A DNA stretch of 60,929 nt, filler included, from Gonapodya sp. JEL0774 (Eukaryota), in assembly GCA_027604505.1 (NCBI GenBank). It is 6 parts of 6 records of this genome, joined end to end, with 100 filler letters (N's around TTAATTAATTAA, not from the genome) between each part and the next. Parts side by side here need not be neighbours in the genome. Positions count along the whole stretch, not along the records: positions 50,920 to 60,929 come from JADIIX010000397.1; 5 more parts are not named here. One strand, given 5' to 3'. A program made the position numbers and the translations under genes. Shown in pieces: positions 8,442 through 60,929 of the stretch; position 1 is the stretch's first letter, and every line of letters starts with the position of its first letter. The notes below the pieces were generated by a model. The model did no database searches, was not told where the DNA came from, and saw only the letters and a list, made by a program, of their open reading frames with translations.

Positions 8442-10089
8442 TCAAAGGCTGACAGTTCCAATCGCAGTTCCGTAGATATCTGTTTTGGGTTTCTTGAGTT
8501 GCTTGATTTGATACTGCACGGAATAGGGCAACATGAAGAGAAAGAAGCGTGAGGTATCAGTTCAGTGAGTTCCCTGGGGGAGCGGCTGTGGTGGCTGGAG
8601 CTGTGCCGTTTCGCTCACCTCATTGTGCTCCCGTTTACCACGACGGGGTTTTACTTTTCGAGGTGTGTATTTGTACTGTTAAATTGAGCCAGAAGTAAGC
8701 TCGGATTATTCACGAACACAAGTACGGAACCTTGATCCAGGGCGACACGACAACTTACCCCAGGATACATCTCACCATGCTTCCTCCTACACTCTTCAGC
8801 AACAACCGAGTATTTTTCTTTCACATCCTTGGTTTCGTTCGCCCATCTCTCGCCAACCAACCTCGATACACGAATGTTGCTGATCGTCTCGCCCCGGGCG
8901 AGGTGCTCAGCGATTATGGCACGACTACAGTCACGTCGGTACAGAATAAAAGAGTTGGGAGGCCGTGGTACGATTGCCGGTCGGGGAGTGTTGCTTTTAC
9001 CCCGACCCGAATAAGGATCGTGAACATCATCAGCAGATGTAAGTTGCTGGCTGACCGACGCGGATCGCAAGTTGATCTTGCGAAGCAGCGAATGGAAAAA
9101 GGGCAGAGTCAAAGATAACATTTTCAGGCAGATAAAGCGCCGACTAGGTTGAAACCCACCTTTCCTTTGAGCCCTCTGCCCTTCTCCGCTGGAGACTCCA
9201 GTGAGAATACGCTGCTGCTAGTAGAGTCACTGCGCTCGGGTGTGTAGGCCAAATGAGCACCACACAACCGGGGATCAAGAAACCAAACCGTCGCAGGGTT
9301 TCCTTCATTTGAGGTGGACAAGTATTCGGCAGTTGCACAGTCGTCATCTTCCAGCACAGGATCTGCACTAGAATCTACGTAATCAAAGTCATTTGTGCAT
9401 GGAGTGTACCATGAGGTATTGATTTCCATGGAATTGGTGACCCTTCCGTGAGATGACTCCGAACTCCGTCGTGAGGTCCCCACCGGACTGTCAGGGCAAT
9501 ATTTGACCGCTGGCTCATGACTAAGGAGATGCGCTGATTGGGCAGTGTCGACCCTGAAGTAGGGAACGAGAATGGGTGGAGCCATGGATGTTGTGAGACT
9601 ATGAGGACCTGTTGTGCTCGCGCATAGTATGTATGATGGTGTGAGAGGTGCGACTACTTGAGGATCGTTGACCCAGCCAGACCACACCGCTGATTCTCCA
9701 AAGTCGTCTCCGTCAGCGTGAGTGGGTTGGGGGTTGGCATGTTCAGTTCCACGATCAGATATACTTCGTGGCTCAGAATCACTGGCTACCACGCCGTCAG
9801 GTCTGAGGCTCGGATGAAGTCCCGCCATTAACTTCTCCGTGTCCCACTCCTCCGCAAAATCGATGATTTCAAGTGGGGGATACATCGGTGATTGATCGAA
9901 GGTGATATTCGGTTGCTGACAGGCGTCCGGAGAGACGTCAGCGAGGACGGCGGACGAATGGAGACACTGGGACAGCGAGACTTTCAGAGACATGTGAATG
10001 GCTCGTTGATGGAGTGAACTGGTACGGGCAATGGGGGTCGCTGGGTGACGGCACCGCTCAAGAATGCTTAATATCGTGCATCGACGCAC
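8442..10089 (-). CDS. HMG-box transcription factor (MATA_HMG/SOX-TCF class); start uncertain, near contig end
   Basis: VPRPPNSFILYRR...ISNIRVSRLVGERWANETKDVKEKYSVVAEECRRKHGEMYPG|YKYTPRK, split by an intron. Long low-complexity N-terminal exon. Last exon ends ...GTVSL* at 8442. Confidence 0.85.
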
Positions 10090-45880: not shown

Positions 45881-47300
45881 TCATCCAACACGCTGCAGTG
45901 TGTATCTTCGCACAATTTGGCGAACCTGCCGGTACGCCACCATCCCAAACTCTTCGTCAAGCTCAATACCGTTCCCAAAAAGGCCGATGACAACAGCTTC
46001 CTCTTCGTCTGTGAGTAGCTTGTTTGGAGGCTCGATTTGGCGATGGGGTTGGTTGAAAACTGGAAGGTCATCAGAGTCAATGCCGAAGTACGCCGGTGCC
46101 CGCTGGTAAAGGTCATCATCAGCGTGTACGTTGACCTACGAGTACCAAAATTGATTTATTTGGGTCCCTGTAAATGGTGTGTGCAAGGGGAAAGACAGAA
46201 AACACCATGGTCAAGCACTTACTTCGCTTCCAAGCCAGCGAAACTCAGCCATCAACTCCCTTGGGGTCCGGTGGTTTGTGGTACGCATACTGTGGTTGTT
46301 CCACGCAGTCACAAACTCTGCCAGCGCCCTGTTTATTACAGGTAAGTACACCAGATGCAACGCGCACACATCAACTTCGTTGTACGGGTCCAACTCGCCC
46401 AGTGACTCCAGCCACTGAAACACGGAGATAAAAAGCGCAACCACCAAACGGTTACTATCTCTCCATAGCCTCTCAATGCGTTGGTTGTGTGTGGAAGTGC
46501 CACGAATGAAGCTCCCACGGTCAGGTCCACGCAGTTCCGTCATGAGCCTGGCAACATCATTGTTCTCACCACCATAGTCACCACGGACACGACTTGGAAC
46601 GCCACATTCACGCAGTCCCTGAGATAACGAAATCGTCCACTGTTTGGTGATTTTTTTTTGGGGGGGGGGGGGTACAGTCAATACATTGTAACACTTTGGA
46701 ACTCACCTGTCGAAAAATACAAAGCACTGTGGACGCTCGGTTATTAGTGGCCGCCTCAAGGTAAACAATGTACCGAGAATAACCATCAATGCAGCCGTGA
46801 ATGACAAATCCATAGGCGTTCAACTGCAGAAGAGTTGAGAAACACCAGTGCGTATTAATTTGTTAGTGCACACTGCTGTGGCCGACATGAGCAGCATTGA
46901 CTCACTTTATGGTTTCCATCCGTATGCCAAAGTGCATTTGGGCCTGACACGTGATAGCGACGACGTGCTATGGTGTAGTGGCTTCGACCTTCGACACCTT
47001 CAGAATCCACTCGACGCAGCGAGCGCCTAATTCTGTGGATAGAGACTTTCAACCGAAAACGGCCGTAGAGGAGACCTATTTGGAGAAGAAAAACGTTCCG
47101 AAGTTTGGTCCGGAGCGGTGGAGTCGGGGCCGAGGTGTAGGCGGAGGCAGGAGTAGGTGGCACAGGTGTTGTTGATCTGTCCTCCAGCTCCAGCTCCAGA
47201 CCCCCAGACCTTTCCAACCTGGTCCGTGCCATGTCTACCGCGGCATCGACCTCCACACTTCTCTCCCCATCACTCGGCCTCGAATTATGATGCATTTTCG
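45881..47300 (-). mobile_element. Eukaryotic IS3/IS481-related (IS3EU-like) DDE transposase with spliceosomal introns; 5' end uncertain
   Basis: RIRRSLRRVD...RRRYHVSGPNALWHTDGNHK|L...FVIHGCIDGYSR...NNRASTVL..F|..[14 protein letters not shown]...[15 protein letters not shown]...WNNH...|...FGIDSDD...GMVAY*. The D-D-E triad is intact. Confidence 0.88.
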
Positions 47301-48774
47301 CCCCAAACCCGATTGCCATGGCCACCGACATGCGGTTCAAAGGGGAAACACCCTTCCCACGGTCATGGTACTCGCTTGGACCATGCTGAGTCTCTTGATG
47401 TGGTTCTGCATGCAGGGACGCGGTCCGTCTCTGCACCGACTGCACCTGTTCGGGTCCCCGTCAAGGTTGCCCCGGAGTGGACGCCGCACCACATCTCGTA
47501 CAGTGACCGTCGTGGGTCGGAGTCTGCAAACGGGAGGGGGGGGGGGGGGGGGGCCCAACCCGAAACACAACTGTCCAACAAGGCACAAAAGGCCNNNNNN
47601 NNNNCTCGCGCCGGGGGGCGGGCGGCCGCGTGGGCGCCCCCCCCCCCCCCCCCCCCCCTCGCCGGCGGCGGGCCGCGCGCGGGCGGGCCCGGGCCCGGGG
47701 GGGGGGGCCCCCCCCCCCCCCCCCACCACAGCGATCCACAACTGTCCACCAAGGCACAAACTGCGACCGAACAGCCCTTTCAAACCGTCGTCAACCTCCT
47801 CCCCGTTATATCCGTACATGATCGCGAGCAGCTCTCTCACTTACCTCATGGTATTAATCGAACGCAACGATCGCCTCTGTTTGATTGCCATCCACCATCA
47901 CACTTTCCTTCCCGAACCACTCAGCGCCTTCCTGGTGCTTCCACGGGTTTGCTCGCCCCTACTTGCAGTTTCAGATGGAATAATCAACCACTGAAGCCGA
48001 GCGCGCATCAACGTGGGAACGGAGTGATTAGAATTCACGATCTGCAGGGGGGACCAGCCGGATCATCGGCCGATCTTCAATCCGAAACGTTTTGATTATG
48101 AAAACGATAAGTGCTTGTAAGAAAAACTCCTCCTTTCTCGATGTCATTTTGTGTCAAATGAAAAATGAAAATGATGATTGTGTTGTCTCTCTTGTGGTGG
48201 TGGTGTAGATGTTCCTTTGCTGTTGTGTTGCCTCTATTGTGTGGTTCCTGCACTCTTTATGGGGTTGACATTCAATATTCTTTACATGATACCTCTTTAA
48301 TGTGTATGTTTGCTTCTCTTGTGTGATGGTACAGGTGTTGTATAATTTTTGGGTCAAAATTTTCCCATACGCCAGCTGAATACACATATACATTGCTGTC
48401 CATCTGCTCAATCATGCCCCCGTTCAATCGTTGAACCTCACATGACAGAGCTCTCTTGCTACATTACACAATGCCTTTAATGATAGCACGGACTCACCCA
48501 TGAGCTGCGCCTCTGGGCCCAGTCGTGTCTCCCTGATCGACCAGCAATATGATTTTTTACTTTCCTTTGGATGATTCTCCGTTTGTTCCCGTCCTTTCTT
48601 TCCTCGTCGTGTTAGTTCTGTATACAAGAATGCCATGATCCCGCCTCTGTGACAAAATTACAAGATTGTGCACATTACATAGATGCCCACGCTTCCTCGA
48701 TCGGCGACACAATGCAACCATCGCCATCCCTAGTGTCACCAACAGAACATACCACCGCGATGCATCCGCCCTCT

Positions 48775-50919: not shown

Positions 50920-51297
50920 TGTTGTGGATTCGACGGCGACGACGTGCTCCAGCAGCGTGACGGCCTTGCCCACCTGCCCGTTGGCCTGGTACGCCCAAGC
51001 GAGTTCGTGCTGCGAGGCGAGGCGGGACGGGTGGTCCTCGGCCAATGTTGTGGATTGGACGGCGACGACGTGCTCCAGCAGCGTGACGGCCTTGCCCACC
51101 TGCCCGTTGGCCTGGTACGCCTGAGCGAGTGTGTGCTGCGAGACGAGGCAGTCCGGGTGGTCCTCGGCCAGAACCCGCTCACTGACGGCGACGACGTGCT
51201 CCAGCAGCGTGACGGCCTTGCCCACCTGCCCGTTGTCCTGGTACGCGGAAGCGAGTTCGTGCTGCGAGGCGAGGCGGGACGGGTGGTCCTCGGCCAG
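50920..51297 (-). repeat. Three near-identical 126-bp (42-aa) TPR-coding tandem repeats, cut by the contig end
   Basis: Units 51297-51172, 51171-51046 and 51045-50920: LAEDHPxxLxSQHxLAxAYQxNGQVGKAVTLLEHVVAVxxxx. Confidence 0.95.
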
Positions 51298-53637
51298 TTT
51301 CAGCGCATCCCGTCTTCCAATGTCGCATTTCTGGAGCCACATCACGGCTTCTGGCACTTTGCCATCCTTTTTCAAGCATCGTCCGATCCAGAAACAAAGG
51401 ACGTATCGTTCCGCCAATTCCTTGCCTTCGCTGCTTCCCAGCACTTTAACGGCGTGCGGGAGGTACGCCCTCCACACATCCCTGGCGTCCCAATCGTCTG
51501 TTTGAAAAACTGTCGCGATGTGCTGAATCGCTTCTCTCGTCTTTTGTGCAGTAAGGCCCTGTATGCGAAGCCAGTCTCCAGCCGCCAGATGCACTAACCG
51601 GTGGAGGTCATACAGGTCCTGGTCCTTCCGAGGCGACACGAAGGAATAACCAATAAGAGTACCGATAGCATCTTCCATTTTTAGTATTGACTGCGCTGCA
51701 GGCAAGATGGATCGAGGAATTGCCTTGGACTCGATGCACGACATGAAAGACAAGAGATCCGCGGCCAGGGGATCGTTTGTGCGGATCTGGTTGAAGGAGA
51801 CCAGCCACGTTGTGGCCACGGCATTGCTCGATCCTGAATAGCGTTGCTTGTTGACGAATTCCTTGCTCAGGAGGTCGGCCACCTCCGAGCTTCGTAAAAT
51901 GTCAAGATAGCCAGCAATGGACAGTTGTTTGTTTTTATTCAGATACGCTACCGCCTGAGAGAGTGCCAGTGGCAAACAGGTGAGCTCCTCCAGAAGGTTG
52001 TCCACGCTTGCGAAGTCGTACAGGAGCTCCTTGCGGATGAGGGACGTCTTAAGTAACTCCTTCGCCTCCTGCTCATCCATGGCGTCTACATCAATGACAT
52101 CGGCCACCGCCAGCGCAACTGCGACCTCTTGAATGCGGGTTGTGTACACGAAGAGCCCCTCCTCGCTCTGTGGAAGGTAGTCTGCGATACCGGGGGCTCC
52201 CCCGGACCCGTTTACAAGTCTCGCATCGTCGGCATTGTCGAGGACGATGAGCCAAACACCTGCCCTCTTCGTACTCAAATGCTGCTTCACAAGGTCCTTG
52301 ATGTCGTCGTCCTTGTCCGAACGTATCCCCAGTGTTTTTGCAATCTCCCGGCATGCCTGCTCGAAGCTCTCCATGCTGATAGCAGGTAACCAAAACACAG
52401 AGCGCCTTCTGTCCGCCTCCTTGACCTGGTAAGCAAACTCCAGCGCAACCTGCGTCTTTCCGACCCCGCCGAGGCCGACAAGAGCCATCTGCCGGCATTC
52501 CTTGTTGTTGCCTAAGAGTTTGTGCGCCAACTGTTGAAGTTGAGAGGTGCGGCCCACAAAACGAGGATTCCGCGGAAATGGAATGTACGCTGTAAATTTG
52601 CAGATTTGCGTCAGGTCAGCTCAGTTCCTGTAACACCCACCCGCACCGCGCGTGGCTTGACGGGTGAAAAAGAAAAAGTGACGAACCTCGTGTTCCCGGA
52701 TCGGTCCTGGGTATCACCAACAGGAGTTCCTTGGCGCATGCTGCAGCTGCGCCTGCTGCATAGCCCTGCCAGTTGGAGTTTTTGTGCGAGTCTGCATAGT
52801 CACAAATGCCTCGAATCACAAGACATGGGAAATGATTCATGAGCCCTGCCGCTTCCATCTCGAAGCACAGGACTCCTCCGAGATCGGTGCTGACTCTGTC
52901 CCGTTGCATCCCATCCCTCATGTCCTGATTCCCGGATGCAATCAAACCGTAGTGAACCATGGGCTCTTGAAGAGCTCGAGTGGGCCGAAGGAGTTGCCTT
53001 TCAGCGCTGCAGGACGTGCACGCGTGGCGGCCACGTTCGTGATTATAGCTCGGATGGAACAAGACGTCAGGTCCGGCAGCCTCCCGACGAAAGATCGGAA
53101 GGGGAAGAAGCTTCGTCAGGTGACCCGCAAGGCCATCTTTCTCGGTGACGAGGTTAGCTTGAAGTTGGCTGACAGCATTGAGAAGCAACGGCGGTGGACT
53201 GTTGAGGAATCCCTTTCGGCGGAACCCCTCGTGAGTTGTTTCCCCAAAGTCGTACTGCACCACGCCACCGTGAGTTTCCAAGGGCTGACTGACGACCACA
53301 TCGCCCAGTCGAATGTCTGCGTCCGGGCTGGGAACACCGCCTCCGACGCCTACCATGAGACGGAACTGCAGGGAATCGAAGGTCCGGCCGAGGTTGTTCG
53401 CAACCGCTGCGGCAGAGCTGGTCCCGCGATTTCCGGCCGGAAGACAAGCGACGACAACATTGTGTACCCCGATCCGTCCGAAAGAGTAGATGTTTGGGTC
53501 GCTCATATCCCGATCGAGTGGTTGATATTCCTCGTCAAACATTGCCCGGGCAGCCGCGAGCTCGGTCGGGAGAGCGCATATCCACCCAACAGTATACTCG
53601 TCGGAACGCAGGCGTCTTGCCTTGGAGCCATCTGGAG
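50920..53637 (-). CDS. Fungal NLR: PNP_UDP (nucleoside phosphorylase-like) + NB-ARC + TPR, 3' truncated
   Basis: EYTVGWICALPTE, LMVGVGGG, DIRLGDVVVS, CFEMEAAG, IRGICDYADSHKN. Intron 52590-52686 leads to YIPFPRNPRFVGR, P-loop GLGGVGKT, Walker B WLIVLDNADD, LPLALSQA, LHRLVH, then 42-aa TPRs. Confidence 0.95.
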
Positions 53638-54077
53638 CTGTACAGGGGGTGTGCATGGTAAGTTGACAAGTGTGATCCGGAGAAACACTGTGTTCAGGGA
53701 TCACCTCCTGCACGCCTGTCCGACATTCAATTCAGTTCTTTGAGGTAAGGAAAGAGATTTCTTTGGGGGTTTTGGTCGACAAAGCCCTCCAACAGTGCTG
53801 CTGGACAATCTTGTGGGTTGCAGGGCAAGGTCCGCCACCTCGCCCTGAGAGGGGCAACCCTGGCTGGGTCTTCCCCGATTGGGCAACATTCAATGTATCG
53901 CTACCGGTGAGCAAGGCACACTCAGTGTATTTGTATCACTTCTTTTTGTTAAACCCAGTGCTTTAACAACACAAATGAATTGCAAGGTAGTGCCACCACC
54001 CAAGTCAGTCAGTCAGCCAGCCAGCTAGCCATCCTCACATGAGAGATGCATGATTTTTGAGAGCAGGAAAGAGAGCT

Positions 54078-55000
54078 TCAACCACTCCGACGAGCTGATG
54101 GCTGTATCACAGATAACATCTCTTTGGCGCAAGCAGCTGCGGTTGCGGCAGCGTACCCCTGCCACTTTTGATTCTTGTGCGAGTCCGCGTAGTCGCAGAT
54201 ACCCCGAATCACGAGGCAGGGAAAGTTGGACATCAGCCCCGCCGCCTCCGTCTCGAAGCACAGAATGCCTCCAAGCTCCTTGCTCGTTGCATCTCGTTGG
54301 GCCGCGTCACCCATCACTCGGCTGCCCGAAGCGATGGTACCGTAGTGAACGACCGGCTCTTCGTCTTGTCGAGGTGATCGCAAAACCTGTTGGCATGGTC
54401 GCTGCGTAGGTCCAGGGGCGTGGTTGCATGTCGCATCAAATAGTATATCCTTCCCCGTCGCAGCGCGAGAGAACGCTCGGAGACGAGTCAGCTTGGCGAT
54501 ATGATCCGCAAGGCTGTTTTCTCCCACGAGTTGGCTGGCCCGAAGGTGGGTGACCGCATTGAGTAGCATCCGTGGCGGGCTGTCGAGGTGTCCAGTTCTA
54601 TGGAACCCACTCGAAGTCAACTGACCGCTGTCAAACTGAACCACACCGCCGTGCGTTCCAAAGGGCATACTAACGACGACATCTCCCAGTCGGATGTCTG
54701 CGTCCTCACTGGGGACCCCGCTTCCGATGCCCACCATGAGACCAAACTCCACCGACGTGAATGTCCGCATGAGCTGCGCCGCGACAGTCGCAGCGGAACT
54801 TCCTCCTGTCATGCCAGCTGGAAGACGCGCGAGGATGACATTGTGCACCCCGATTCGGCCGAACGAGTAAATATTGCCATCACCGGCAATCCGGTCAAGG
54901 GCAGGATGCTTTTCATCCAAGAGTGCAGTTGCGGCAGCCAACTCAATGGAAAGGGCACATATCCATCCGACAGTGTACTGGTCGGGCCGAAGTGGTTGAG
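54078..55000 (-). CDS. Second PNP_UDP domain exon
   Basis: QYTVGWICALSIE, LMVGIGSG, DIRLGDVVVS, CFETEAAG, IRGICDYADSHKNQKWQGYAA. No ATG of its own, and preceded by the acceptor ttggtag. Confidence 0.9.
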
Positions 55001-55056
55001 CTACCAACGAAAACGGATCTTTTTACCATCGTCGAACTCAAAACTTCAAAAAGAAT

Positions 55057-57065
55057 TTATGGTCTACCTCTGGCAGCAATATTTGGTGCCGTGCCCGGTG
55101 GTACTTCCGCCTCTGTATGAGCAGGCGCTACCATGTGCCGATGCGGACCGGGGTTCCATGTGTTGGCAGTTGCAACCCCTTGCTCGAAATGTCTTGCCGG
55201 TACCGGTGATGGTTGCTGCGAAGTGGTTGCAGAGGGAGCGAGAACAGAATCGACATGCGCTGGTGCTACCTGGAGCCTGGGAGGCGGTTCGGGATCGGTC
55301 AACTGGGGGAAATGGTTTTTGAGGTCTTTCACAATTTCCGCGAAAGTTGGACGCTGTTCAGGAAGTGGGTCCCAGCAGCGCTTGACAAGTTTCTTGACTG
55401 GTTCTGGCATTGGAACGGCAGCCATTCTCTGCGTCTCTGACAGGTTCTCCAGGTCCTCATATGTGTCAATGTCAGGCCGATCTCCGCTCAAAATGCAATG
55501 GACAATGGAACCTTCCATTGCAGTGAAGAAGGGAATCTGGAGCGTATACATCTCGTAGAGGGTCATCGCAAAAGCATGCACATCCACCTTTGCAGACAAC
55601 TTTGGTTTTCTGCCAAAGAGTTCGGGCGCCATCCAATTTGTCGTTCCGCGGCGTGCTTCTTTGCTGAGAGTCGAAACTTGGGATGCTATAACCGCGAAGC
55701 CAAAGTCTGCAACAAGAGCATGGCCCATATCATCCACTAGAACATTGAGCGCCTTGAGGTCGCAGTGAAGGACTCCTTTTGTGTGGAGGTGTTGCATGGC
55801 ATTCGCAATGTCGAAAATGAGATCGATGCGGTCTGCACGCGGATTCTTCGTCAAATACGTGAGGAGATCGCCGTTGCGCATATAAGGCGATACCATGAAT
55901 GGCGGTGTGGCCCGGAGATTTGCTCCGAAGAGTTGTATGATGTTGGGGTGGCGAAGACGGTACCAGCGTTCCACCTCGTTATGAACAAGCTGATAGTGAG
56001 TAGAACAAGGTGAGATGTTGGTACAATGACGGGCCGAAAAGGACAATTGCCCCACTCACCGCTTTTAAGTTTTCGGGTGGATGTTCCACTAGCAAGTACT
56101 TTATGGCAACGCGACGAGTTCCTCCCCATGTCCCGAGATACACCTTACCGAATCCACCTGCTGCAAATGGAGTGCTGTTGCGTGCAACATCCTGTTCCGG
56201 GATATGCCATTCTTCATCGGCCAAGTATTGACCCGATATACGTGAAATAGAGGTCCGGGCCTTGCCGAGAAGATCACGTTCGTTCGGACTGGGCGAACCA
56301 ACATTGAGGGTTGCTTGTATTCCTCTCAAGATCTCCAAAACGTGCTGGCCCTGACTGTTTGTAACCTCCAGTGTTGCGAGGATGGTTGCGTCGTTCTTCA
56401 GCAACTGGTCCAGCGCATTCTGCGCGGTAACTTCCTCAGCTTGCCGGTCTGCCTTGTTCTCGGCGGCCCAGCTGTCGAGGTTCAGCGTAGCCGTAAGCTA
56501 TCAACAAAACATTCGTTAAGTTGGTCATGGAGCTTTTCGAAAAAAATTTGATGTTGTTCCACGAACCTGAAAGTCATTTACCATAGACTGAAGTCTATTG
56601 TCGTACTCTTCAAGTTCCTTTCGTGTAGCGCTGCTGTTGAGTACGCGGTACCACTTTGGCTTCCCTTTGACCGTCTCGAGGAACTTGGCAACCTCCATGA
56701 GAAACCTGGAGACGAGGAACAGATATTAGAAATCGTATTCGATTTTCTTCAGAACAAACTCACTCAGTGAACTTCTTGGCATGGGTTTGGAGAGGTTCTC
56801 GAATGTCCTTGTTTCCAGGGTCCATTCGGCTGGCGATGGCTTGGACGAGCAAGGCACAGCGGCTGGCAAGACGCACGACGAGCTCTTTGTTGTCCTTAAA
56901 GTCCTTTGACAGAGTGTAGACAGCGCGGAGAGCCTCAGCGCAGGTTCCAAACACCGGGATGTTAGTGAGGTTGGAGACGACATTCAGGACGGTAACGACG
57001 CCATCGAGCAGGTTATTGACAAACACGGGATCGACTGCATTCGAACCATCCACGCAGGCCTCCAT
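55057..57065 (-). CDS. MLKL-like N-terminal helical domain + TKL-type protein kinase
   Basis: Exons 57065-56764, 56705-56582, 56497-56060 and 55989-55068. N-terminal IPVFGTCAEALRAVY...KDNKELVVRLASRCALL is the MLKL_NTD pattern. Kinase motifs GGFGKVY, VAIK, HCDLKALN, DFG, WMAPE, CWDPLPEQRP. Confidence 0.88.
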
Positions 57066-57861
57066 CGTCCTACTTTTCGGGGAAACTCTAGGGTGGTGAA
57101 GGTGGTGGTTCAGCCAGCCACCAAAGCTTTGGTCACAGCCATTTGAAGGCCAAGGACCACGTACCAACCAAAACCGAGGCGGAGACGAGCTGCGCATACC
57201 CAGCCAGTCCAGACCGAGCCAGGAGTGACCAGGCACACTTGGAAAGGGGCTGTGCACACACGAAGGCGGCGCCGGGCTCACCTTCCATCTGCCAAGCACA
57301 CAGAGAGGGGGTGTGACGGTGGCCCTGGTTTGAGAATACAGTTGCTCCAGCTGCTCCTGGAATCAACTCATAGGGAAAGATCTAGACCTACCCGTCACGG
57401 AGTCACAAAAGGGTGCGTATTTTTCGGAATGCTATGGTTTTAACAGAAAAATGGGGCAGTAAGCGCACCACTCGAATGTCGTACATTACGCCGCATGCTG
57501 CCACAATTCTTTTTCTCTTTCGAGATGGAAGGCAGTGTCGAAAACAGACCGTACTTCAGGTGGCCCAGCTGTGGATCAGGCGAAAGCGAGTGTCAAGAGA
57601 CAAATTGTCCCCGCTATCAGCAATGGCTTTCCAAACACATTCAGTCTCGACCATCTGGGACAAAGTATTCTCCGAAACTTCCGCGTTCGGACGTTTGGTG
57701 AGCAGATTGGGCAGTCCTCACGTCACAACCAGCATCTCTTAAATCATTTCTGCCTCTCTGGACGACGAAACTGCTGATCAGTACATCATGTTACCGTTCG
57801 CGAAAATCAACCAAGGAAGAAAAAGCGCAGATCCCCCGGTATATTTTTCCGAGTTTATATA

Positions 57862-58470
57862 ATGATAATGGCAAAAATATTGAAAAGAGAACTACCTTGT
57901 GGTGTCTCGTTGGATCAAGGCATTTTGCCTATGGAACTTCACGCAAGCAAGGAGAAGTTTGAAATCTTATGGTCACTGAAACCACCAAAGTATGGCCACG
58001 TTGTTATTCAGGGACGTTCCATACCAACTCCAAGATATTTCCAAAATTACAACAAATCGTATTATTTCTCCGGATTGAGTCACAGTGCAATGCCAACTCC
58101 TGACACTCTGCAACCATACATCGATTGGGCGAACACACTACCTGAGTACAGACATTACGGAAAGTTTGATCAAATATTGGCAAACTGGTACATCAATGGA
58201 AGTCATTACATCGGACCACATTCCGATTCTACAATAAACGTAATACCAAGAAGTCCGATACTTTCCATCAGTCTGGGAGTGACAAGAATGTTTAGAATTC
58301 GAGATAAGAAGTCGAAAATGATTCTCAAAGACGTTGAAGTGAAAAACAATACCTATAGTGTCATGTGTGGCGATTTTCAGAACAAATGCACACATGAGAT
58401 CGTAAAGTCTAAGAGAGTAAATGGACCTCGAATGAGCATCACATTGCGGATGTCGCTCGACCAGTCCTGA
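57862..58470 (+). CDS. AlkB-family 2OG-Fe(II) dioxygenase (ALKBH2/3-like), intronless
   Basis: PTPRY, LANWY, YIGPHSD (HxD), ILSISLG..RMF, THEI (distal His), RMSITLR. Visibly more AT-rich than the neighbouring host genes. Confidence 0.93.
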   Translation: MIMAKILKRELPCGVSLDQGILPMELHASKEKFEILWSLKPPKYGHVVIQGRSIPTPRYFQNYNKSYYFSGLSHSAMPTPDTLQPYIDWANTLPEYRHYGKFDQILANWYINGSHYIGPHSDSTINVIPRSPILSISLGVTRMFRIRDKKSKMILKDVEVKNNTYSVMCGDFQNKCTHEIVKSKRVNGPRMSITLRMSLDQS

Positions 58471-58574
58471 TCATTATCTTTCAATGTTTTTCATGAGTTG
58501 TTCCTGCTGGCTCACAAAACGGTATGTGTCCAAGTTGTAAACGGGGGTGTCGACGAAGGCAGCGGTTTTTCTAG

Positions 58575-58915
58575 ATGCGATTCCACATTCTGAAACTTTT
58601 CGAAATCTCATCCCGGATGGGGATGAGGATGGGGATCAGACTTTCTGAAAACTTTTCGAAATCTTCATCCGGGATGAGGATGGGATCAGACTTTCTCAAA
58701 CTTTTCGAAATCCTCATCCGGGATGAGGATGGGATCAGACTTTCTGAAAACTTTTCGAAATCTTCATCCGGGATGAGAATGGGATCGGACTTTCTCAAAC
58801 TGTTCGAGATCCTCATCCGGGATGAGGATGGGATCAGACTTTCTGAAACTTTTCGAAATCTTCATCCGGGATGGGGAGAAGATGGTTTTCGATCACATTC
58901 TGAAACTTTTCAGGA
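58575..58915 (+). repeat. Tandem array A: about 6 units of 49-50 bp, each with two palindromes
   Basis: Unit TTCT(G/C)AAA(A)CTTTTCGAAATC(T/C)TCATCCGGGATGAGGATGGGATCAGACT. Palindromes TTTCGAAA and ATCCTCATCC-G-GGATGAGGAT. Alternating 50/49-bp units give a 99-bp higher-order repeat. Confidence 0.95.
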
Positions 58916-58980
58916 TGAAGGAAAAATCAGCCGCCATCACTCTTATTTGCGTCTAGTTCTTTATACAGGCAACAAACAAC

Positions 58981-59715
58981 TTATTTCTTGTACAGTGGAA
59001 GGTTGTCCTTTACTACTATTGGCTTAGTTGTCGTCAGCCCAACTTCGACGTCCGATCCACCATGTCGACAGCAACATCCTCTGTAGTACACATCCTTCAA
59101 ACACGCGAGCACAAAACAACAGAGAACAACGCCGACAATCATCGCCAACACTGCAACTGTCCACGTCATTCCAGTCACCACCGCCATCCATCGCGGCGAC
59201 GCTGACGTTCCGTGAACCCACCCAATGTTCGTGCTGTTCAACGCCCTTTCAATCGCTTCCTTCTCTGCTTCACTCGCTTCCCAGTTGGTGCTGACATACA
59301 CCGGACCAGCCTTCCCAAACGTCGCCAAAAGTCCGTTTCCTGAAACATGCCCTCCAACCATCCATTCACCAGGTAGGGTCCAGTCGAGGTCTCCTCCGCC
59401 AACGCTGCCATTCAATTGCTTTGACAATTCAAATGTCACCGCAAGCGCGTTCCCAACGATCTCGTTCGCCTGCCACCACGTGAACCCATACCCAATCGCC
59501 CTGATTCGCCGCCCTCCCGTTTCAAGATACACCGTCGCTCCATACATCCCACACGTGGCTCTTGCTGTCAGCGGGCACGTCACACACTGGTTAGCATACC
59601 CTCGTCGAACCAAGACAGTCCTGTCTTCCCCCGTCCCATCAACCCCGCTCGTACTCGTCGCAGTGAATACCGCAATGCTCAGTGTAATCAGAACAGTCAA
59701 AAGCGTTTTCAGCAT
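58981..59715 (-). CDS. Intronless type I membrane (glyco)protein of unknown family
   Basis: Signal peptide, VLVRR|G dibasic site, NGS and NST sequons, C-terminal TM helix and a Cys-rich tail (LCCFVLAC...GCCCR). Confidence 0.75.
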   Translation of the reverse strand: MLKTLLTVLITLSIAVFTATSTSGVDGTGEDRTVLVRRGYANQCVTCPLTARATCGMYGATVYLETGGRRIRAIGYGFTWWQANEIVGNALAVTFELSKQLNGSVGGGDLDWTLPGEWMVGGHVSGNGLLATFGKAGPVYVSTNWEASEAEKEAIERALNSTNIGWVHGTSASPRWMAVVTGMTWTVAVLAMIVGVVLCCFVLACLKDVYYRGCCCRHGGSDVEVGLTTTKPIVVKDNLPLYKK

Positions 59716-59736
59716 GTTGTTTGATGGATTGCTTAG

Positions 59737-59810
59737 ATGATTCGATGCTATGCTTCGATGCTTCGATGGGATGCTTCGAATGTTCGATGGAATGCTTCGA
59801 TGCTTCCATC
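59737..59810. repeat. Short degenerate (A)TGCTTCGA repeats upstream of the glycoprotein gene
   Basis: gattcgatgctatgcttcgatgcttcgatgggatgcttcgaatgttcgatggaatgcttcgatgcttcc. Confidence 0.8.
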
Positions 59811-60217
59811 GGTGCCATCAGTGCTTATATCCCGTTCTCCTCTGTGGCTCAGCTGGTGCTCATCCTCGAATTTTTTTTTCTTCCTTTTCTTTTCGGGATG
59901 GGGATGGGATGGATTGGTTGCAGGTCAGATGGGATCTATGCAGAAGTGGGATGTGATTATGTTTTCTACAATTTTTGTATCTGTGACTCTCTATAAGCTG
60001 TCACGAACTCTGCCCTTTGCGTTATTGTCTAACTTCGAACAACAGCGTTCTCAGCTTCACACGCTTTACTCCTTCACCTCATACTTATCGCATCAATGAC
60101 TTGAACAACCTATACGATCGTTTTTCTACTATCCCAGATGGCAGGTATTTTTGTCAGAACCTTATAAGTGTGATATATAAGTGCTACACAAACTGGTTGG
60201 AAACAGAACCGCCTTGA

Positions 60218-60523
60218 TCAGGACGCCATGATGGCGAGCGCCCCTATCATGTACACCATTGTAATAAACTTGAGAGTTCCATTCACCGGTGTGAAGTCCC
60301 CATATCCGGTTGTCGTCCCCGTGGTCACAAGGAAGTACACTACGTCATATATAGACATCTTCTTCTCTTTGAATGAAGATGGCACACCCCAGTGTTCCAC
60401 ATCTTGGAACATCGCCCATACTCCAATCGTCACAGCCGCAGTCCACGCTGCCAGTACACCAACCCGCATCAGAACCTTTCCAACGTCGATCGACTTGAGC
60501 TCCTTTGCGAATACTGAGGTCAT
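60218..60523 (-). CDS. Miniature 2TM-1P potassium channel, viral Kcv-like, 101 aa, intronless
   Basis: MTSVFAKE...TM1 (VGVLAAWTAAVTIGVWAMF), pore helix IYDVVYFLVTT, filter TTTGYGDFTP, TM2 (KFITMVYMIGALAIM), then an immediate stop. ATG in AAAAATG context. Confidence 0.93.
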   Translation of the reverse strand: MTSVFAKELKSIDVGKVLMRVGVLAAWTAAVTIGVWAMFQDVEHWGVPSSFKEKKMSIYDVVYFLVTTGTTTGYGDFTPVNGTLKFITMVYMIGALAIMAS

Positions 60524-60624
60524 TTTTGGCTCCACCCTACCACATAGTAAAAGTTTTATTTTGCCCTGGCAACGACACACTCACGCTGCCTTCTGTCGGC
60601 TCTTCACACTGTGATAGAGGTCGC

Positions 60625-60929
60625 ATCTCGAATGAGTTTCGAAAAGTTTTCAGAATATCTGACTCCCATCCTCATCCCAATCCCGGATGAGATTTCGAAA
60701 AGTTTTTCAGAATCTCTGACTCCCATTCTCATCCCAATCCCGGATGAGATTTCGAAAGGGTTTGTCGGAATATCTGACTCCCATCCTCATCCCAATCCTG
60801 CATGAGATTTCGAAATTTTTTTTCAGAATCTCTGACTCCCATCCTCATCCCAATCCCGGATGAGATTTCGAAAAGTTTCAGAATCTTCATCCCATCTTCA
60901 TCCCCATCCCCATCCTCTTCCCAATCCCG
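60625..60929 (-). repeat. Tandem array B: about 5 units of about 57 bp, same family as array A in inverted orientation; runs to the contig end
   Basis: The reverse complement of the unit, CGGGATTGGGATGAGGATGGGAGTCAGAGATTCTGAAAAACTTTTCGAAATCTCATC, aligns to the array A unit. Confidence 0.95.

Follow-up and report, generated by a model that had tools for sequence, protein, structure and literature searches.

A candidate giant-virus-derived minimal potassium channel gene on a contig of the fungus Gonapodya sp. JEL0774

Chloroviruses encode the miniature K+ channel Kcv, which is 94 aa long in PBCV-1 and 82 aa in ATCV-1. The chlorovirus channel probably starts membrane depolarisation, the loss of K+ and water, the drop in turgor and the exclusion of a second virus (PMC7019647). 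In PBCV-1 Kcv, the N-terminal helix is 12 residues long, and its K6 forms a pair with the carboxyl group of the C-terminus at the inner gate (PMC12332018). Viral K+ channels vary in role and probably go back to several acquisitions (PMC6163359), and a host-integrated copy of Kesv, the channel of Ectocarpus siliculosus virus 1, is on record in the brown alga Ectocarpus (bioRxiv 10.64898/2026.07.31.740523).

The K+ channels described from fungi are of the TOK type, with two pores and 9-10 predicted helices, and of the Kv type, with a voltage sensor (PMC3410928). Mycodnaviridae have been reported from zoosporic fungi as proviruses and fossils, in the form of whole or partial elements (PMC13533422), and earlier work had described small giant-virus islands surrounded by genes of the fungus (PMC5294986). 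The words 'potassium' and 'channel' are absent from the available text of PMC13533422. A literature search, which lay mostly outside the subscription journals, found no report of a Kcv-like channel from Mycodnavirales or from the genome of a fungus, and an entry in a supplement table is possible.

Here, a 101-aa K+ channel gene from Gonapodya sp. JEL0774 (assembly GCA_027604505.1) is described. The best explanation for it, to which a probability of roughly two in three is assigned, is a giant-virus fragment, likely of the Mycodnavirales lineage, that was integrated in the fungus and encodes a Kcv-like tetrameric K+ pore. The window, meaning the whole stretch of 60,929 nucleotides that was analysed, consists of six contigs joined by five N44-TTAATTAATTAA-N44 linkers within 10119-50919. 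Its parts, of 10010-10118 bases each, are unrelated and stand in descending order, and genes on the two sides of a linker are no neighbours. Therefore, only 50920-60929 (JADIIX010000397.1) is physically linked to the channel gene.

The 101-residue pore compared with known channels

The 101-aa ORF is real and whole, and it encodes a complete pore module with fold and filter. A search with the Pfam Ion_trans_2 profile, which had been suggested as a check, gave 41.8 bits, well above the cut-off of 22.5, at E 9.7e-11. The AlphaFold2 model, built from a 16-row alignment, has a mean pLDDT of 91.4 and contains an N-terminal helix (residues 2-10), TM1 (14-39), a pore helix (58-69) and TM2 (82-100), with a W45-x-x-P48 motif in the turret. 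The filter stretch reads TTGTTTGYGDF with the signature T71-T-G-Y-G-D76, and 72 residues precede the first filter G while 25 follow the D. ORF, domain match and model thus agree on the complete TM1-pore helix-TTTGYGD-TM2 module with scant C-terminus that the original prediction had described. K+ channels are recognised by T-x-G-Y/F-G-D with an aromatic pair upstream (PMC6163359); the ORF has this signature within a TM1-turret-pore helix-filter-TM2 layout, and its upstream pair, Y63-F64, falls on the YF of a K+-selective mutant of NaK in an alignment that spans pore helix and filter. Given the intact filter, the protein is predicted with good confidence to assemble as a tetramer and to conduct K+.

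Like chlorovirus Kcv, the Gonapodya channel has two helices, a pore helix, a G-Y/F-G-D filter, a short Lys-bearing N-terminal helix and an end at TM2. A chlorovirus-type channel of 94 aa (L107) has 64 residues before the filter G and 26 after the D, compared with 72 and 25 here. However, identity amounts to 19/81 to L107 and 18/76 to a second chlorovirus-type channel, L117 (23-24%), and the W-x-x-P turret is absent from both. Chlorovirus Kcv has Val where the Gonapodya channel has Thr before GYG, a substitution also present in 9 of the 118 small viral channels of a panel that is a sample. Kcv resides in an algal-virus genome, whereas the present gene lies on a fungal-looking contig beside an AlkB gene, an orphan and spliced genes. 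Of the features that strictly define a chlorovirus Kcv, the channel has the 80-100-aa size class without a cytosolic C-terminal domain, and lacks the kinship and the chlorovirus genome. Judged by its sequence, it is no close relative of chlorovirus Kcv, and the earlier designation as Kcv-type holds for minimal size and layout but not for close kinship, given the 23-24% identity and a separate W-x-x-P family.

Foldseek searches with the channel model returned small viral K+ channels as the best matches in the viral collection BFVD, with TM-scores up to 0.75 and no match at E<=0.001. These best matches, from Tetraselmis virus 1, RhiV-SA1 (Rhizochromulina virus), Fadolivirus and Kesv, have the same fold at 13-27% identity, and the hosts of their viruses are algae or amoebae. 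Matches in the PDB were NaK and other pores. Solved TOK channels match weakly (E 0.0017); fungal TOK1-type and Kv channels have a G-x-G-D filter like the Gonapodya channel, which differs from them in having one pore, two helices and no voltage sensor.

A family of minimal channels with a W-x-x-P turret

When 1.84 billion protein representatives were scanned with the channel, 368 reached E<=0.001, and the best 150 of them were listed. For comparison, two panels were assembled, one of at least 120 IMG/VR loci obtained with the filter pattern (of an estimated ~330) and one of the best 80 of 97 prokaryotic TTTGYGDF loci; each is a sample and no census. Among the 150 best of the 368 matches and the panels, the nine top single-domain scores belong to single-pore proteins of 82-139 aa (53.5-39.4 bits), and the best domain of any multi-pore channel among the matches listed and the panels reaches 37.4 bits. 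Multi-pore eukaryotic channels come first on whole-protein score because their domains add up. Seven of the nine best single-pore matches have the turret motif in common with the Gonapodya channel, with C-termini in register. A search with an alignment of the channel and seven relatives then drew 875 candidates, of which 11 reached E<=1e-8 and were set apart by a profile gap of 85-144 bits versus 56.4 or less. A word-indexed protein search with the channel alone produced two candidates, none at E<=0.001, and an exact look-up of seven window proteins in the protein collection found 0/7. There was no match among GenBank phages and a single one in IMG/VR, which is partial and phage-borne; it lies on a phage-like contig (L001:4149-5222), where a 357-aa protein with a C-terminal TTTGYGD pore module is encoded just upstream of terminase-like genes.

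From the protein searches and loci, 17 minimal channels that have the W-x-x-P turret in common were grouped here as a family. The motif occurs in the turret of the Gonapodya channel, of 17/17 members and of 1/460 other pore modules; the chain ends within 28 residues past the filter D in the Gonapodya channel, in every member and in 26 of the 460. A query-free profile of the 17 members scores the channel at 76.2 bits, compared with 58.5 for the best non-member (415 sequences scored), and as seven or eight members were first found as its matches, this family profile favours it. With a profile of the five members tied to context-bearing loci, the channel obtains 59.1 bits and the best non-member 49.6 (423 sequences). 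By motif and profile, the channel is therefore placed in the W-x-x-P-turret family, as a divergent member. Its best family match is 35% identical over 86 columns, while cellular pores reach 32% over 75 columns, and the W-F-T (W/F/Y-F-T) pore-helix end of most members is replaced by G-T-T; P0005 and P0018 also differ at this place. A DVEHW run is common to the channel, P0020 and the channel of locus L202, and in amino-acid make-up the nearest proteins are P0020, P0018 and P0005. The four closest relatives (P0005, P0009, P0018 and P0020) come without genomic context. The suggestion that the locus holds a new natural minimal-channel variant is in keeping with the long W-x-x-P turret together with the Thr before GYG.

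Of the 16 loci from a metagenome scan, the first nine belong to the family; with L202, the one family member found in IMG/VR, these nine represent five distinct contexts with a GC of 23-31%. The neighbours at L202 are a D5 primase-helicase, TFIIS, MSV199/T5orf172, asparagine synthase and dCMP deaminase, and those at L259/L260 are a Pox_A32 ATPase, DUF5764 and EsV-1-7. L254, L255-L258 and L261 are AT-rich and gene-dense, with no hallmark gene among the 17 ORFs scanned. At one end of L255, bacterial-looking prepilin ORFs are found. At L256:2258-2416, the N-terminal half of the family channel is missing from the frame, which is interrupted by stops immediately before the pore helix; the matches of L255, L257 and L258 cover this same part only, so that a broken copy or an assembly error may be at hand.

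The bin that contains L202, GVMAG-M-3300023174-59, is assigned to lineage MGVL29 and is flagged as having high contamination and low quality (PMC7162819 supplement). MGVL29 includes one IM_02 genome and at least three IM_18 genomes (PMC7162819, PMC8575486; a count over 9 or 10 of the 32 MGVL29 rows). IM_02 corresponds to Mycodnaviridae, and IM_02 and IM_18 together form the proposed order Mycodnavirales, for which an enrichment in genes of inorganic ion transport is reported (PMC13524828). The supplements of that paper have no row for bin GVMAG-M-3300023174-59. The D5 helicase of L202 has no further relative among the fetched loci, so the lineage of L202 depends on its bin. L254 was considered as a second link to MGVL29, its assembly having yielded an MGVL29 bin; its contig was not seen in that bin, and it was not counted. 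The MGVL29 link, which was not sought by design and runs through a single contaminated bin, is the best pointer to the donor.

The contig around the channel gene

Table 1. Features of the channel contig, with positions counted along the window
Positions	Strand	Feature	Basis or remark
50920..54812	-	Host PNP_UDP - NB-ARC - TPR gene and second PNP_UDP ORF (54078-54812)	Domain matches
55057..57197	-	Spliced host protein kinase, four reading-frame pieces	Marks the host side of the junction
57862..58470	+	AlkB-type 2OG-Fe(II) dioxygenase, 202 aa, uninterrupted, GC 40.6%	Domain match
58583..58920	.	Tandem array, 49-nt unit, TTTCGAAA and 11-21-nt near-perfect palindromes	TRF, 5.2 copies at 58620-58877
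58981..59715	-	244-aa uninterrupted orphan, predicted single-pass membrane protein	No Pfam family above cut-off
59723..59806	.	4 tandem copies of a 21-nt unit, immediately 5' of the 244-aa ORF	Repeat scan
60218..60523	-	101-aa minimal K+ channel	ATG start, Ion_trans_2, AlphaFold2
60625..60929	.	Tandem array, 58-nt unit, TTTCGAAA palindromes, inverted relative to the 58583-58920 array	TRF, 5.1 copies at 60625-60910; reaches the contig end

The gene style changes along the channel contig (Table 1), with spliced fungal-type genes on the left followed by three unspliced ORFs, namely AlkB, the 244-aa orphan and the channel. GC is 55% left of 57400 versus 46% to its right; the other five contigs of the window have 49-55%. 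A 4-mer Markov test for host-likeness set no block apart, and Rfam gave 0 matches on 57200-60929. On the left side, the PNP_UDP - NB-ARC - TPR gene has a layout that is presumably typical of fungal NLR-like genes, and the intron scan found a candidate intron in it with an end at 52590. In the kinase gene, the scan identified one canonical 58-nt intron (56763-56706), and two further introns are deduced from frame changes; the first kinase piece has a weak MLKL_N match below the cut-off (E 0.23). These genes and the stand-alone PNP_UDP ORF (50920-57197) could form an immunity cluster adjoining the virus-like block. On other contigs of the window, an HMG-box ORF is present at 8651-9121, and a weak rva_4 integrase-core match below the cut-off (E 0.001) at 46855-47331.

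Among the unspliced genes, the AlkB ORF has a sole relative at E<=1e-20, to which it is 39% identical, with plasmid AlkBs at ~30% and no relative in IMG/VR or among the fetched loci. The 244-aa orphan is hydrophobic near its N-terminus, has a single strong transmembrane stretch towards its C-terminus and carries a tail that contains Cys. It matches no family above the Pfam cut-off and no relative in IMG/VR, its single-sequence model is too poor for use (pLDDT 40.5), and it could be a virion or surface protein. The channel ORF has a GC of 50.3% and a GC3 of 61.4%. No viral hallmark gene (capsid, polymerase, helicase or other) was found on the channel contig, which covers ~3.5 kb of the putative insert.

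The 49-nt and 58-nt arrays are one repeat type in opposite orientation around the channel and 244-aa genes, and their arms are complementary at up to 91% over 65-69 nt. A partial unit lies between the two genes at 59894-59915. The 58583-58920 array folds far better than its shuffles (z -6.15). The core motifs of the arrays are confined to the right end of the channel contig and occur nowhere else in the window, and one pattern derived from them had no match in IMG/VR. The palindrome-rich arrays (58583-60929) could be viral origins, enhancers or the ends of a fold-back element. In pithoviruses, inverted repeats are hotspots of gene capture (PMC10664404), which offers an analogy to the present arrays and not a match.

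Competing origins of the channel gene

An integrated giant-virus fragment is supported by the turret motif, the family profile, the giant-virus-like contexts of family members, and the switch of the contig to unspliced ORFs and palindromic arrays. As in the Mycodnaviridae elements, unspliced virus-like genes share a contig with fungal genes, and the MGVL29 link points to the same lineage; those elements are defined by major capsid and core genes (PMC13533422), whereas the channel contig has none. Counted against this explanation are the GC of the channel gene, host-like at 50% versus 23-31% in the viral loci, and the 3/5 family contexts that are without a hallmark gene among the ORFs scanned. 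On balance, we infer a viral donor, the donor lineage and a true integration. The origin in a fungus-infecting large DNA virus that the original prediction put forward is probable in view of the giant-virus-like contexts and the MGVL29 bin, yet the trees also allow a cellular one.

In such a cellular origin, the pore would be a single module left over from a two-pore channel of eukaryotes or an acquisition from a bacterium, its small size being convergent with viral channels. A quick tree of 103 rows has the Gonapodya channel as sister to the W-x-x-P family (SH-aLRT 81), and a realigned tree that keeps the turret groups it with the family at 58/77, whereas a careful tree of 53 rows, chosen to span groups and trimmed of the turret columns, places it inside cellular pores at 93/88. 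The AU tests reject no alternative placement (eukaryotic pores p 0.415, prokaryotic pores p 0.308, chlorovirus Kcv p 0.113), and the channel is grouped with chlorovirus Kcv in 0/3 trees. Because the alignment has fewer than 100 columns, these trees neither prove nor refute a viral origin: the phylogeny that had been proposed as a check sides with the family in two trees of three, and the bacterial grouping that had been named as a refuting outcome is compatible with the AU test. The whole-protein ranking, led by multi-pore eukaryotic channels, also fits a cellular source, and the ESM Atlas neighbours, 88-105-aa Ion_trans_2 clusters, are labelled Bacteria from few members, which counts mildly against viral origin. 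Against a cellular origin, the W-x-x-P turret, the flush C-terminus and the DVEHW run are common with the family, the family leads by more than 10 bits when domains are scored singly, and among the best 80 of 97 prokaryotic TTTGYGDF loci two pores end within 28 residues past the D; a cellular origin is thus considered quite unlikely. Hardly any credence is given to the idea that a longer fungal channel of the TOK or Kv type is spliced together from this ORF and other exons. The contig stops within a repeat array 406 bases upstream of the channel ATG and might hide further exons, and a loose intron scan found one intron-like stretch within the ORF (60514-60448), which is taken for chance because its 67 nt would shift the frame. 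The ORF has its own ATG in an A-rich context with an in-frame stop 19 codons 5' of it, no CTRAY branch motif occurs from the ATG up to the contig end, and the 502 bases downstream contain no second pore or ORF extension in any frame, all of which makes the exon reading unlikely. The C-terminus is in register with those of all relatives, so the stop codon is natural. The larger channel that the original prediction had named as a possible refutation thus did not emerge from the contig sequence.

The locus might also be viral but unintegrated, with a free or co-cultured giant virus misjoined to fungal DNA or another organism in the sample as the source. This would agree with the fragmented assembly (six contigs of ~10 kb), the end of the channel contig in a repeat array and the fall in GC from 55% to 46% at 57400. 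However, repeat scans found no repeat family prone to misjoining in the junction zone (57200-57860), GC and CpG ratios of the channel and 244-aa genes are host-like, and small viral islands surrounded by fungal genes have been described (PMC13533422, PMC5294986), so that an unintegrated source is regarded as unlikely. It is distinctly improbable that a small fold-back-like mobile element, with the two arrays as its termini, carries the channel and 244-aa genes, or that the host has kept the channel for uses of its own; the ancestry of the channel may still be viral, with a present vehicle other than a provirus. The inverted arrays do enclose exactly these two genes, with the arm complementarity given above; the GC of the enclosed pair is host-like, unlike that of AlkB, which lies outside the arrays, and all ORFs are uninterrupted. 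A transposase or target duplication would be invisible here because the contig ends within the right array. On the other hand, the third, partial unit between both genes fits dispersed intergenic repeats, and the unit sizes differ (49 versus 58 nt).

Possible role of the channel and its meaning

If an integrated giant-virus fragment is accepted, the channel gene would have entered the fungal contig as part of this fragment, and four subunits are predicted to form a K+-selective leak without sensor domains. In the free virus, by analogy with Kcv, the channel may sit in the virion or the host membrane and depolarise the cell; K+ and water would then leave, turgor would fall during genome delivery, and a second infection would be blocked. 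This role, from membrane placement to superinfection block, is put forward tentatively. The predicted helix 2-10 carries K7 and K10, and the chain has the same end point as PBCV-1 Kcv; hence the channel may gate in a similar way, with K7 or K10 pairing with the C-terminal carboxyl as K6 does in the chlorovirus protein. Viral regions in Allomyces are mostly poorly expressed (PMC13533422), and the integrated copy may therefore be silent.

Viral mini K+ channels and giant-virus fragments in early-branching fungi are each known, so what is new is their junction and the family itself. It is conceivable, though somewhat doubtful, that Mycodnavirales own a mini K+ channel family independent of Kcv, and that the copy described here is the first candidate viral channel with a fungal membrane as its target, at entry or, if expressed from the integrated copy, in a prophage-like block of superinfection. 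Crude extracts failed to infect a virus-free strain (PMC13533422), and K+ channel blockers have been tried on chlorovirus infection (PMC7019647). For the entry of giant viruses into fungal cells, a Kcv-like channel would offer a concrete and cheap handle, through expression in yeast and the use of blockers on infection. The W-x-x-P family, in turn, adds natural minimal-pore variants for structure-function work.
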